A stretch of DNA of 47,890 nt from a virus (IMGVR_UViG_2671180896_000002); one strand, 5' to 3'. Numbered from the stretch's first letter, positions 29,245-32,641 are shown. Notes: a model not told the origin generated them from the letters alone. Program-made: numbers and translations.

Positions 29245-29787
29245 TCAAGCCATTTTCTCAGCAAATGATTCACGCATGGGAATATATAGGGCATACTCAG
29301 CAACAGCTAACCAATTAGCAATCCGTTTTTCGCATGTGCTAAAACACCACTCTGGGTGTGCATCATTTAGCAATTCAGCCATTTTGCGCTTAGTCATCCC
29401 CCGCCCTTCATAGCGTTGCCGGAGAATGCAAATCAATCCTGGATGCTCTGCCAGCACCTCACTTATGACTCGATCAATACATAACGCCTCTGCATCAGTA
29501 CAATGCGCCAGCCAGCTCTTTTGCTTGCCGTTGATCATCTCTCGCAAAAACGCTTCCAGCTCAGCTTTCTCTATTCCCGCTTTTTTCATTCTGCGCAGGG
29601 CTTCATTAATGGCTGTTTTCGTCAGTTTTTTGGATGCCAACAACTGATTGAACATATTCCCTGACCTGCCACCGCCAATATACGACCAGCGCCCCCACAT
29701 ACGTAGTTTTCCCTGAATCCAGACACTTTCCAGCGTGGTGAGGCGAAGGTGTTCTCCGCTTTTTCCTGTATTCGTTGGGTAAATCAT
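29245..29787 (-). CDS. Putative late-gene antiterminator (Q-like) by position; family not identified
   Basis: 180-aa ORF with Cys pairs (HCTDAEALC, EWCFSTCEK); last gene of the nin-like block, followed by terminator hairpin, morons and the lysis cassette, the position lambda Q occupies. Not lambda-Q-like in sequence. Confidence 0.4.
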   Translation of the reverse strand: MIYPTNTGKSGEHLRLTTLESVWIQGKLRMWGRWSYIGGGRSGNMFNQLLASKKLTKTAINEALRRMKKAGIEKAELEAFLREMINGKQKSWLAHCTDAEALCIDRVISEVLAEHPGLICILRQRYEGRGMTKRKMAELLNDAHPEWCFSTCEKRIANWLAVAEYALYIPMRESFAEKMA

Positions 29788-30074
29788 AAATGACCTTTCT
29801 TTCTCCAGATTTCTTGTGTGCGAAAAACCCCTTCAGCATGCATCAGGCGCAATTCTTCTTTGGTGTAATCGCTGGTTTTTACCCGCTCGTCGATTAGATC
29901 GTGGCATGAGCTACAGGCTATCGCCGCCTGCATATCGTGTGGTTTTGTCGCTGTTCCGCACGTCCCCGCCAGCCTGTAATGCGCCAGCACAGAGGTTTCG
30001 GGATTGTGATTGCAGTAGCCAGGGATTCTGATCTGGCACATCTGGCCTTTAGCCGCTTTACGTAAATTCACCAT
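29784..30074 (-). CDS. YbcO-like (DUF1364) protein, putative Zn-binding nuclease of lambdoid nin regions
   Basis: 96-aa ORF MVNLRKAAKGQMCQIRIPGYCNHNPETSVLAHYRLAGTCGTATKP...IACSSCHD with four conserved Cys, resembling DLP12 YbcO as recalled. Confidence 0.65.
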   Translation of the reverse strand: MVNLRKAAKGQMCQIRIPGYCNHNPETSVLAHYRLAGTCGTATKPHDMQAAIACSSCHDLIDERVKTSDYTKEELRLMHAEGVFRTQEIWRKKGHL

Positions 30075-30673
30075 TACGCAAACTCCAGTAGTTGTGCGGC
30101 CACATTTTCAACTTCCTCCTGAGAGGAGAATTTACGGAACAGAATCCAGTTCCACAGCACATTCAGTACAGATTTATAAACCTGCTGAAACTCGACTTCG
30201 TCCATATTCGCAAAAGCGATGGATTTTGCCCGACGCCCACGGCTACCGTCCGGATAAATATGCTCGGTGTAAAATCCGGCCTGAATGGTTACCCACTCGC
30301 GGAAAGCCTCAAACGACTTTAGCAACGCCGTATCCCGGGTTCTACGAGTCGCAACGGTGTTAAGGTATTGCTCTGCGGCATCACTCAGGGCTGGCGTGTG
30401 TTCCCGACCAACTGATTCGCACAGGTAATCAACGAAACCAGACAGCAGTTCTCGTTCGCGAGGCGTGATCGCCCCACCGACCGGAGTCCAGTAATCGAAT
30501 CCCAGTTGCAGGAGTTTGAAAAAACGCTTGTGGAATGCGTAGTTACGCACACGCTTAAAGTCTGCGTGTATCCACTCACCTATTTTGATTTGATGCAGAA
30601 AATCGCAACTCTCCGGCGTCGCCGGGAGAAGTAAACCAGAAGAAGTTTGTTTGACCAGTTGTATATGCGCCAT
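30074..30673 (-). CDS. Hypothetical nin-region protein (199 aa)
   Basis: ORF translationally coupled (ATGA overlap) to the YbcO-like gene; no confident family assignment. Confidence 0.5.
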   Translation of the reverse strand: MAHIQLVKQTSSGLLLPATPESCDFLHQIKIGEWIHADFKRVRNYAFHKRFFKLLQLGFDYWTPVGGAITPRERELLSGFVDYLCESVGREHTPALSDAAEQYLNTVATRRTRDTALLKSFEAFREWVTIQAGFYTEHIYPDGSRGRRAKSIAFANMDEVEFQQVYKSVLNVLWNWILFRKFSSQEEVENVAAQLLEFA

Positions 30674-30946
30674 TTCTCAATCTCTCGATGGCGCAGTGCA
30701 GCAGATGCCAGTTGTTCAGGCTGACGTATAAAGTATAAATAAACTGGTTCCAGTGTAAAGCCCCCACCTTAATGGAATAAAAACCAAACAACAGATTGCT
30801 GGGATACAAACAACGCTTATTATTAAAAGCGGTTAAACAAATTAAATTTTAATGTTATGCAAATTTGTCAGATCACCATAATATCTCATTTGAAAACCGC
30901 TGAAATAACAGCCCTATCAGGGTTAATCATATTAAGGTGAGTAAAT

Positions 30947-31033
30947 ATGGAAAACAACAAATCTGTACATTACGTTCCTTTTTTATCTGTAATACTTTTT
31001 GTTTTATGCTGTGCGTGGGCATTATTTTTATAA
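30947..31033 (+). CDS. Small hydrophobic peptide (28 aa), candidate small membrane protein/toxin
   Basis: ATG preceded by AAGGTGAG SD at 6-nt spacing; MENNKSVHYVPFLSVILFVLCCAWALFL, a single predicted TM segment; not in the supplied ORF track (too short). Confidence 0.3.
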   Translation: MENNKSVHYVPFLSVILFVLCCAWALFL

Positions 31034-31124
31034 AAATATTTACAGATGAAGTAAACCCGCCAATCAGGTTAACTGTGGCTGCGTTGAGGATGCATAATAC
31101 ATCAGAGGTTGCGGGGATTTCTCC

Positions 31125-31147
31125 CATAAGCGCTAACTTAAGGGTTG
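31125..31147. repeat. IS186 left terminal inverted repeat
   Basis: CATAAGCGCTAACTTAAGGGTTG; exact reverse complement of 32441-32463. Confidence 0.9.
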
Positions 31148-31173
31148 TGGTATTACGCCTGATATGATTTAAC

Positions 31174-32292
31174 GTGCCGATGAATTACTCTCACGATAAC
31201 TGGTCAGCAATTCTGGCCCATATTGGTAAGCCCGAAGAACTGGATACTTCGGCACGTAATGCCGGGGCTCTAACCCGCCGCCGCGAAATTCGTGATGCTG
31301 CAACTCTGCTACGTCTGGGGCTGGCTTACGGCCCCGGGGGGATGTCATTACGTGAAGTCACTGCATGGGCTCAGCTCCATGACGTTGCAACATTATCTGA
31401 CGTGGCTCTCCTGAAGCGGCTGCGGAATGCCGCCGACTGGTTTGGCATACTTGCCGCACAAACACTTGCTGTACGCGCCGCAGTTACGGGTTGTACAAGC
31501 GGAAAGAGATTGCGTCTTGTCGATGGAACAGCAATCAGTGCGCCCGGGGGCGGCAGCGCTGAATGGCGACTACATATGGGATATGATCCTCATACCTGTC
31601 AGTTCACTGATTTTGAGCTAACCGACAGCAGAGACGCTGAACGGCTGGACCGATTTGCGCAAACGGCAGACGAGATACGCATTGCTGACCGGGGATTCGG
31701 TTCGCGTCCCGAATGTATCCGCTCACTTGCTTTTGGAGAAGCTGATTATATCGTCCGGGTTCACTGGCGAGGATTGCGCTGGTTAACTGTAGAAGGAATG
31801 CGCTTTGACATGATGGGTTTTCTGCGCGGGCTGGATTGCGGTAAGAACGGTGAAACCACTGTAATGATAGGCAATTCAGGTAATAAAAAAGCCGGAGCGC
31901 CCTTTCCGGCACGTCTCATTGCCGTATCACTTCCTCCCGAAAAAGCATTAATCAGTAAAACCCGACTGCTCAGCGAGAATCGTCGAAAAGGACGAGTAGT
32001 TCAGGCGGAAACGCTGGAAGCAGCGGGCCATGTGCTATTGCTAACATCATTACCGGAAGATGAATATTCAGCAGAGCAAGTGGCTGATTGTTACCGTCTG
32101 CGATGGCAAATTGAACTGGCTTTTAAGCGGCTCAAAAGTTTGCTGCACCTGGATGCTTTGCGTGCAAAGGAACCTGAACTCGCGAAAGCGTGGATATTTG
32201 CTAATCTACTCGCCGCATTTTTAATTGACGACATAATCCAGCCATCGCTGGATTTCCCCCCCAGAAGTGCCGGATCCGAAAAGAAGAACTAA
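31174..32292 (+). CDS. insL: IS186 transposase (IS4 family, DDE)
   Basis: 372-aa ORF (M)PMNYSHDNWSAILAHIGKPEELDTSARNAGALTRRREIRDAATLLRLGLAYGPGG..., recognisable as IS186/IS421 transposase; sits inside the inverted repeats. Confidence 0.9.
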   Translation: MPMNYSHDNWSAILAHIGKPEELDTSARNAGALTRRREIRDAATLLRLGLAYGPGGMSLREVTAWAQLHDVATLSDVALLKRLRNAADWFGILAAQTLAVRAAVTGCTSGKRLRLVDGTAISAPGGGSAEWRLHMGYDPHTCQFTDFELTDSRDAERLDRFAQTADEIRIADRGFGSRPECIRSLAFGEADYIVRVHWRGLRWLTVEGMRFDMMGFLRGLDCGKNGETTVMIGNSGNKKAGAPFPARLIAVSLPPEKALISKTRLLSENRRKGRVVQAETLEAAGHVLLLTSLPEDEYSAEQVADCYRLRWQIELAFKRLKSLLHLDALRAKEPELAKAWIFANLLAAFLIDDIIQPSLDFPPRSAGSEKKN

Positions 32293-32440
32293 CTCGTTGT
32301 GGAGAATAACAAAAATGGTCATCTGGAGCTTACAGGTGGCCATTCGTGGGACAGTATCCCTGACAGCCTACAAAACGCAATTGAAGAACGCGAGGCATCG
32401 TCTTAACGAGGCACCGAGGCGTCGCATTCTTCAGATGGTT

Positions 32441-32463
32441 CAACCCTTAAGTTAGCGCTTATG
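32441..32463. repeat. IS186 right terminal inverted repeat
   Basis: CAACCCTTAAGTTAGCGCTTATG; exact reverse complement of 31125-31147. Confidence 0.9.
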
Positions 32464-32485
32464 GGATTTCTCCCCGCCGGTCCTC

Positions 32486-32641
32486 TTACTCCCCAAGTTC
32501 GTAAGCTGTGAAGACAGCGACCTCCGTCTGGTCGGTTCGGATTCGTACCTCGCAGAGGTCTTTCCTCGTTACCAGTACCGTCACTATAACGGTTAAACAG
32601 ATGACGATCAGGGCGACTAACATCGCCTTTTGCTGCTTCAT
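32486..32641 (-). CDS. hok: Hok/Gef-family type I toxin (small membrane toxin)
   Basis: MKQQKAMLVALIVICLTVIVTVLVTRKDLCEVRIRTDQTEVAVFTAYELGE (51 aa), near-identical in pattern to HokD/RelF and HokC; the supplied ORF extends in frame upstream to 32698. Confidence 0.85.
   Translation of the reverse strand: MKQQKAMLVALIVICLTVIVTVLVTRKDLCEVRIRTDQTEVAVFTAYELGE

Follow-up and report, generated by a model that had tools for sequence, protein, structure and literature searches.

Morons are autonomous units of promoter, gene and terminator that lie between the conserved genes of HK97, lambda and related phages. In the classical case they usually point the same way as the operon around them, and their proteins are larger. 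Another group of comparable genes encodes the small inner-membrane proteins of E. coli that were found by ribosome profiling or tagging, e.g., YohP, YnhF, MgtS and AcrZ. Small membrane peptides are also the toxins of type I toxin-antitoxin pairs, in which an antisense RNA acts as the antitoxin. In tisB/istR-1, zorO/orzO, shoB/ohsC and dinQ/agrB, the toxin and antitoxin genes are divergent and overlap at their 5′ ends (described in part in PMC3919570).

We analyzed a stretch of viral DNA of 47,890 nt (IMGVR_UViG_2671180896_000002), referred to here as the window. The window carries a lambda-like prophage with its early-right and late-regulator genes on the minus strand. On the plus strand there is a 28-codon open reading frame (ORF), which diverges from the NinB-like gene and converges with hok. 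The ORF is part of a conserved module with the following features.

30698–31035, no strand assigned: the whole conserved module, a divergent promoter region plus the small ORF (alignments)
30732–30759, minus strand: promoter-like TTTACA-16-TATACT, directed at the DUF1367/NinB-like gene (10/12 matches)
30813–30860, no strand assigned: conserved AT-rich block 5′ of the −10 region, UP-element-like, AAATTAAATTTTAATG (conservation)
30855–30884, plus strand: candidate sigma-70 promoter (hexamers and conservation pattern)
30889–30946, plus strand: predicted 5′ UTR of about 56–58 nt (from the predicted start)
30926–30953, minus strand: antisense promoter-like TTTCCA-16-TATGAT (9/12 matches)
30934–30941, plus strand: Shine-Dalgarno (SD) sequence AAGGTGAG (sequence read)
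30947–31033, plus strand: 28-codon ORF and TAA stop codon (sequence read and ORF list)

The unit resembles phage morons in several respects. It has its own promoter signature, a 3′ hairpin and a GC content below that of its surroundings, and its orientation suits expression in a lysogen. The location between conserved phage genes, deviant GC content and variable presence among related phages that mark a moron were all found here. The module lies between a cargo slot and the DUF1367 gene. Its GC content (33% versus 47% for the window) and its absence from the DUF1367 phages of other genera (Salmonella and Klebsiella) are expected for a moron. Unlike classical morons, the unit runs antisense to the early operon, and a promoter serving that operon is physically fused to it. 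A hairpin lies 3′ of the ORF in both the hok and the IteAS contexts. In the IteAS context a plus-strand terminator was found; in the hok context the hairpin is the one shared with hok and has no U-tract. The scan of the divergent clade returned no plus-strand terminator. The ORF is similar to yohP, ynhF, mgtS and acrZ in the size and single helix of its product, in its strong SD and in having been missed by gene callers. It differs from them in lacking homology to them, in being prophage-borne and in varying between strains. It is likely that the ORF is a real coding gene, whether its product is a toxin or not. The reading that we favor, tentatively, is an unannotated moron-type gene for a small accessory membrane peptide and not for a classical antisense-controlled toxin. 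The non-toxin part of this reading comes solely from the absence of typical type I features.

The ORF begins with an ATG at 30947 and ends with a TAA at 31031–31033, and its 28-aa product is MENNKSVHYVPFLSVILFVLCCAWALFL (ORF list). The frame cannot extend further 5′, as it has a TGA at 30938. A polar N-terminus (MENNKSVHYV) makes up the first 10 residues of the peptide, and a hydrophobic C-terminal segment, PFLSVILFVLCCAWALFL, the other 18. These 18 residues run to the C-terminus and, judged by composition, would suffice for one membrane-spanning helix, which would be tail-anchored. The mean Kyte-Doolittle hydropathy of residues 12–28 is 2.6–2.9 in four clades. The hydrophobicity rule of Fozo et al. 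(2010) calls for at least 10 of 15 residues from a defined hydrophobic set, and 13 of the 15 residues of FLSVILFVLCCAWAL belong to that set. With 28 aa and a predicted transmembrane stretch, the peptide also falls within the size and membrane limits used for type I toxins (up to 70 aa, predicted transmembrane stretch). The C-terminus reads ...CAWALFL. No charged or polar residue follows S14, only W24 and F27. There are 52 ORFs of at least 20 aa within 3 kb (ORF list), and a length of 28 codons is not significant by itself. The comparative pattern described below, unlike ORF size, is beyond what chance would be expected to give.

Profile searches against Pfam, NCBIfam, PHROGs, PADLOC (E up to 10) and PDB profiles identified no family to which the peptide belongs. 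The only matches were faint and signal-peptide-like. They cover residues 9–22, are far below threshold, and are to Lp6.6 (E 0.03–0.75) and to an Rz-like spanin PHROG (E 0.009–0.24). The same databases gave no membership in the known toxin families (Hok, Ldr, Ibs, TisB, ShoB, DinQ, ZorO and others), and Rfam at E up to 10 returned only sok. We also considered whether the peptide could be a lipoprotein, using a lipobox of [LVI][ASTVI][GAS]C followed by a mature protein. The main variants (FVLCC and FVFCC) have L, F or C before the Cys, and minority clades have FAGC or LFAC. The lipobox is thus not conserved in the common variants and a lipoprotein was rejected; its "mature" part would be 7–8 hydrophobic residues. 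The peptide probably represents a new family of small membrane proteins of E. coli prophages that has no relatives in current databases.

The module is about 340 bp long and AT-rich. Homology between clades ends 2–3 nt past the stop codon, and aligned copies differ by 25% or less. Of 5426 complete E. coli genomes, 1177 (about one fifth) carry the segment containing the promoter and ORF (30840–31036), in one or two places per genome and in separate prophages. E. coli SE11 is one carrier, with the module at 1492492–1492982 of NC_011415.1. A scan of the genome collection with the promoter pattern identified it outside E. coli only in Shigella flexneri and Escherichia ruysiae, besides chance matches to AT-rich DNA. 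The module is also carried by four induced E. coli phages and by about 200 IMG/VR prophage contigs. Among K-12 prophages, DLP12, Rac and Qin lack it; the 3′ segment of hokD is all that matches there (31053–31115 of the window). In the DUF1367 phages of Salmonella and Klebsiella, the corresponding position is taken up by co-directional genes and the intergenic module is missing; a synteny search 5′ of the DUF1367 genes in these phages gave no distant homologs. A tblastn search of phages and plasmids resulted only in the same Escherichia copies. An exact look-up of seven peptide variants in a collection of 15 billion proteins found none of them, and the peptide strings are absent from the full-text literature searched. 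A literature search on IteAS and lambdoid hotspots returned nothing relevant. At 87 nt including the stop codon, the ORF is too short for annotation pipelines to call. The initial annotation had described the ORF as unannotated, and this agrees with the RefSeq records listed, none of which has a feature under the region.

The sequences to the left of the module fall into two clusters. One is the DUF1367 gene (93 non-redundant contexts) and the other is a 92-aa gene followed by DUF968 (30 contexts). To the right there are seven sequence clusters with at least five kinds of cargo. Three of these clusters contain hok/sok (one intact and two with IS186 after the ORF), one contains the IteAS anti-phage pair, and the others contain a DUF1971 gene, a P-loop NTPase and one more type. 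The module has been mobile as a unit across two left and at least five right contexts. The DNA to the right of 31035 is an exchangeable cargo slot of which the small-ORF module is the fixed left edge. Hok/sok, IteA/IteS, DUF1971 and the P-loop NTPase have all been seen as cargo in this slot, as has an OLD-like ATP-dependent nuclease together with a Dcm methyltransferase (slot seen in L005–L011, L002 and L004).

For the comparison of the ORF, copies were retrieved with a 20-nt pattern from the upstream promoter block and not with the ORF itself, which avoids circularity. All 128 true copies anchored on the promoter in this way have an intact 28-codon ORF. The only retrievals that failed were two copies truncated at contig ends and chance matches to the AT-rich DNA of unrelated organisms. 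Among 200 loci overall and 70 distinct modules, none has a disrupted ORF, and its length is the same in all 200 loci. There are 17 distinct nucleotide versions of the ORF that encode 14 distinct peptides. In an alignment of seven representative variants, 17 of the 28 residues are invariant (M1, E2, N3, N4, H8, P11, F12, L13, S14, I16, L17, F18, C21, W24, A25, F27 and L28). The variability of the segments, computed over the 70 distinct modules, is as follows.

30813–30860, upstream block: 23% variable columns, no gap columns
30861–30876, −35/−10 spacer: 71% variable columns, 1 gap column
30877–30888, −10 region: 25% variable columns, no gap columns
30889–30933, 5′ UTR: 76% variable columns, 5 gap columns
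30934–30946, SD to ATG: 46% variable columns, of low diversity, no gap columns
30947–31033, ORF: 31% variable columns, no gap columns

Comparison with the most divergent clade gives differences at 19 of the 87 ORF positions, at 26 of 46 in the 5′ UTR and at 27 of 55 in the stretch 30766–30812. Of all possible single-base changes, 11.5% would destroy the ORF. When 19 substitutions were placed at random, the ORF stayed intact in 17–21% of simulations, and only 3–8% of these intact ORFs kept a tail as hydrophobic as the one observed. At least 31 separate substitution events have occurred in the ORF and none is disruptive; by our own arithmetic, 0.885^31 is about 0.02. Codon positions 1, 2 and 3 have 5, 9 and 13 variable sites, respectively. 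Between representatives of distant clades, dN/dS (Nei-Gojobori) is 0.16–0.45, but one other forward and two reverse frames have a similar pN/pS, and dN/dS can therefore not prove the frame. The family is confined to Escherichia/Shigella and ORF divergence is at most 22%, so it is shallow and comparative tests have low power. Even between clades whose ORFs differ at 22% of positions, two parts show no change at all, synonymous sites included: 30977–30987 (CCT TTT TTA TC, codons 11–14) and 31016–31036 (TGG GCA TTA TTT TTA TAA). This invariance may reflect constraint at the level of DNA or RNA, or a recombination junction. On balance, the preservation of start codon, stop codon, SD and frame is moderate evidence for a coding gene.

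These results bear on several points of the initial annotation, which had named conservation of the peptide and its SD across related prophages, together with the synonymous/nonsynonymous pattern, as ways of checking the ORF. Conservation came out in its favor: both the ORF and the SD segment are gap-free, the −10 region is also conserved while the spacer and 5′ UTR are not, and the tail remains hydrophobic, as is plausible for a small hydrophobic protein gene. The substitution pattern helped in one respect, the low dN/dS, and not in another, the similar values in other frames. The annotation had considered the ORF a weak call that resembled a small membrane toxin or another small membrane protein. 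Its caution can be relaxed as to the existence of the gene, which is now probable, and is retained as to function. Likewise, a gene for a membrane peptide agrees with our results, and the type I toxin part of the suggestion agrees in size and transmembrane segment, with a geometry that would allow a divergent antisense RNA.

The promoter, SD and ORF that had been described initially are present in the sequence at the positions claimed. The candidate plus-strand promoter has a −35-like TTATGC (30855–30860), a 16-nt spacer and a −10 of either CATAAT (30877–30882) or TAAYAT (30879–30884). TTATGC matches TTGACA at only 2/6 positions, and the consensus promoter scan accordingly did not return this site. 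The candidate is weak by consensus and is supported by conserved hexamers around a variable spacer. Transcription is predicted to start near 30889. The conserved AT-rich block contains an inverted repeat, CGCTT-N8-AAGCG, at 30814–30831, and on the minus strand this block gives a 5-bp hairpin with a T-rich tail. In the alignment with the most divergent clade, two changed pairs of this stem remain G-U on the minus strand only. A 7-bp inverted repeat (AGCGGTT/AACCGCT) around the promoter was rejected as a structure, as the alignment has no covariation between clades.

The 5′ UTR is poorly conserved across the 70 modules until the SD. From the last base of the SD to the ATG there are 5 nt, and from its AAGG core there are 9 nt. 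Most clades have AAGGTG as their SD, and the L007/L012 clade has AAAGTG. Folding of ten variants predicted a probability of 0.19–0.43 that the SD is unpaired, i.e., it would be partly sequestered. The consensus fold has the AAGG of this SD paired to a CCUU in codons 11–12. A short hairpin, CAGCCCTATCAGGGTTA, lies directly 5′ of the SD at 30909–30925. This hairpin is present in the window and in the IteAS clades and is absent in L012 and the divergent clades. In L008 its minus-strand sequence, TAACCCTGATAGGGTTG followed by TTATTTCAGC, is scored as resembling a terminator.

The reading that we favor can be spelled out as follows. The ORF would be a protein-coding gene in an autonomous "moron" unit of Escherichia lambda-like prophages. 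A sigma-70 promoter, made up of the AT-rich block, the weak −35 and the −10 CATAAT/TAAYAT, would produce an mRNA with an unconserved leader of about 57 nt. The good SD would then allow translation of the 28-residue peptide. The last 18 residues may form a single hydrophobic helix and insert into the inner membrane as a tail anchor, leaving the polar 10-residue N-terminus in the cytoplasm. The ORF is transcribed against the phage early/late-regulator operon, and hence the peptide would be made in the lysogen and not during lytic growth. It would most likely bind or perturb a target in the membrane, to the benefit of the lysogen or the prophage.

The initial annotation had also proposed a search for an overlapping antisense RNA, and the outcome was mixed. 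The antisense promoter-like site has its −35 on the ATG-GAA-A of the ORF. A candidate minus-strand transcript from near 30919 would be complementary to the predicted mRNA over the latter's first ~30 nt. All 70 distinct modules retain a −10-like hexamer that has A in position 2 and T in position 6, as TATGAT (46), CATAAT (14), AATAAT (7), TATTCT (2) or TATTAT (1). Against this, the site fails the criteria of the promoter scan in the most divergent clade, and RNAalifold gave no conserved structure for the putative antisense RNA or the mRNA on either strand, the folds being weak and the covariation terms unfavorable. Folding of single sequences gave z-scores of −2.2 and −1.7. Only a 5-bp hairpin with a U-rich tail, at 30831–30805, could end an antisense RNA.

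Compared with TisB/IstR-1, ZorO/OrzO, ShoB/OhsC and DinQ/AgrB, the locus encodes a peptide of the same size (26–29 aa) and fixed length that has a single hydrophobic helix. It is similar to these divergent pairs in being a stand-alone gene in a long intergenic region, possibly with a divergent antisense promoter that overlaps the 5′ end of the mRNA, and to zorO in its absence from K-12. It differs from them in that the peptide has no sequence similarity to theirs and its C-terminal end is neither polar nor charged. The leader is short and unconserved, whereas those of the known pairs are long, structured and processed. There is no convincing terminator or structure for an sRNA and no tandem copy, and its status as a toxin is putative. 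In their search for type I toxins, Fozo et al. (2010) used as hallmarks a C-terminal cluster of polar, charged or bulky residues and tandem duplication, the latter frequent and not universal. The 28-aa peptide has no such cluster and the module is present as a single copy in the window. Hok/sok, which neighbors the ORF in the window and in most copies, is also a prophage-borne gene for a small membrane peptide. The two are arranged tail to tail, with the stop codon of the small ORF within a few nt of the inferred U-tract of the hok terminator. Hok is 50–51 aa and belongs to a recognized family with mok, fbi and an Rfam-detected sok. The new peptide is unrelated to it in sequence, and the ORF also occurs where there is no hok, beside IteAS, DUF1971 or P-loop NTPase cargo.

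We regard it as doubtful that the locus is a type I toxin-antitoxin module, in which the peptide would be a membrane-damaging toxin and a minus-strand RNA its antitoxin. Such an RNA would start near 30919, end at the weak hairpin/U-tract at 30831–30805 and pair with the 5′ ~30 nt of the toxin mRNA, and its promoter would also occlude that of the toxin. The toxin would stay off until the antisense RNA decays upon prophage loss, phage attack or stress. A small hydrophobic peptide of invariant length with a single transmembrane segment is what known toxin families encode, and other occupants of the slot are hok/sok and anti-phage systems. The divergent arrangement with overlap at the 5′ ends, the partly sequestered SD and the stem at 30814–30831, whose substitutions stay paired as G-U on the minus strand only, also fit this model. 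With 9/12 matches the antisense site is better than the sense promoter, and its −10 is retained in 70/70 modules within a stretch that is otherwise 76% variable. The −35 of that site, however, is confounded with the conserved start codon region, and no antisense promoter is returned by the scan in the divergent clade, where the 5-bp terminator is weaker still. The C-terminus, the single copy, the short (~57 nt) and unconserved leader, and the lack of conserved RNA structure on either strand all speak against the model, as does the lack of a match to a toxin family in Pfam, NCBIfam, PHROGs or PADLOC, or to Rfam. That the locus is a new, Escherichia-specific type I family at the fixed edge of the defense/cargo slot of lambdoid prophages is unlikely.

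We also think it unlikely that the locus is non-coding, with regulatory DNA or RNA bordering the cargo slot and an open frame that is a by-product of T-rich sequence. Its role could then be that of a divergent promoter, of a terminator, or of a transcriptional-interference element shielding the ninB-like..Q operon from read-through. A promoter region for the minus-strand operon, with invariant TTTACA and TATACT, plainly occupies the left half of the module, and a plus-strand promoter directed against early-operon transcription just 5′ of Q could work without any peptide. The invariant synonymous positions in two parts of the ORF, the dN/dS that is not specific to the frame and the roughly one-in-five chance that an ORF would survive the observed divergence fit this idea as well. 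They have to be set against a conserved SD at the correct spacing with conserved ATG and TAA, 87 nt with no indels between flanks that both have them, and a hydrophobicity retained in only 3–8% of cases by chance, with none of 128 unbiased loci disrupted; a promoter or terminator element alone would not be expected to show these features. The ORF, moreover, has no conserved RNA structure and no Rfam family, and the frames on the reverse strand are closed or lack a conserved start. An overlapping gene on the minus strand was rejected: the start of the 66-aa reverse ORF falls within the hok 3′ region, by the IS186 junction, and an internal reverse ATG is lost in the B clade. Very improbable is a relic, the N-terminal signal peptide of a formerly longer gene for a lipoprotein or secreted protein that was truncated by cargo exchange. 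Homology ends just past the stop codon, divergent clades carry the lipobox-like LFAGC and LFAC, and the only database matches are to lipoprotein signal peptides (Lp6.6 and the Rz-like spanin PHROG). All of these matches are far below threshold, though, and the commonest variants (VLCC and VFCC) have no acceptable residue before the Cys. The C-terminal WALFL and stop codon are conserved in all clades, and the ORF changes more slowly than the sequence on either side, contrary to what a dead relic should do.

Provided that the peptide is made, roughly one fifth of sequenced E. coli strains have a membrane protein gene that has gone unrecorded. Its position at the conserved boundary of the hok/sok-IteAS-cargo slot means that it could matter for prophage maintenance, lysogen fitness or defense. 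The module is also a convenient landmark for locating the slot. Should the peptide be a toxin with an antisense partner, it would represent a new type I family restricted to non-K-12 strains, as is zorO-orzO. Such a family could stabilize the prophage or its cargo, or trigger abortive infection alongside hok/sok. In the hok context, the transcript of the small ORF may then read into the 3′ end of hok and influence the processing of hok mRNA. If it is not a toxin, it would be one more small membrane protein without an assigned partner.

The genes and elements on either side of the module in the window are as follows.

29245–29787, minus strand: Q antiterminator gene (DUF1133)
29784–30074, minus strand: DUF1364 gene
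30074–30673, minus strand: DUF1367/NinB-like gene, start at 30673
31036–31124, minus strand: 3′ untranslated end of the hok transcript, cut from hok by IS186
31125–32463, plus strand: IS186/IS421 copy of 1339 bp
32486–32641, minus strand: hok

The location of the ORF next to the IS186/hok region, as given in the initial annotation, is correct; the Rfam match to sok beside hok scores 99 bits. The nearest end of IS186 is 91 nt past the stop codon of the small ORF, which is untouched. The IS element is flanked by a 10-bp target duplication, GGATTTCTCC, at 31115–31124 and 32464–32473. It inserted into a GC hairpin, GCGGGGATTTCTCCCCGC, directly after the hok stop codon. The sequence at 31053–31115 matches DNA directly 3′ of hok genes, including K-12 hokD, and thus 31036–31124 is the hok 3′ end. 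The insertion has therefore separated hok from its own 3′ UTR and terminator. In the intact homolog L007, the hok terminator on the minus strand is AACCCGCTTCGGCGGGTT followed by TATTTTATCT. This terminal hairpin is degenerate in the window, which suggests that the hok locus is decaying.

The left part of the module contains the promoter-like TTTACA-16-TATACT, ~50 nt 5′ of the start of the DUF1367/NinB-like gene. Its two hexamers are invariant among the 70 distinct modules and its spacer is variable. The same block also precedes the different 92-aa gene in L007-type prophages. Its counterparts are at 2535–2562 in L007, 3053–3080 in L004 and 2553–2580 in L008. An internal promoter in front of the ninB-like..Q antiterminator operon would be relevant to the control of the prophage. 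In the otherwise identical prophage of E. coli Ec1120 (L001, 3366–5108), the Q (DUF1133) gene is split by the IS5-like element ISKpn26. Unlike in that prophage, Q is intact in the window.
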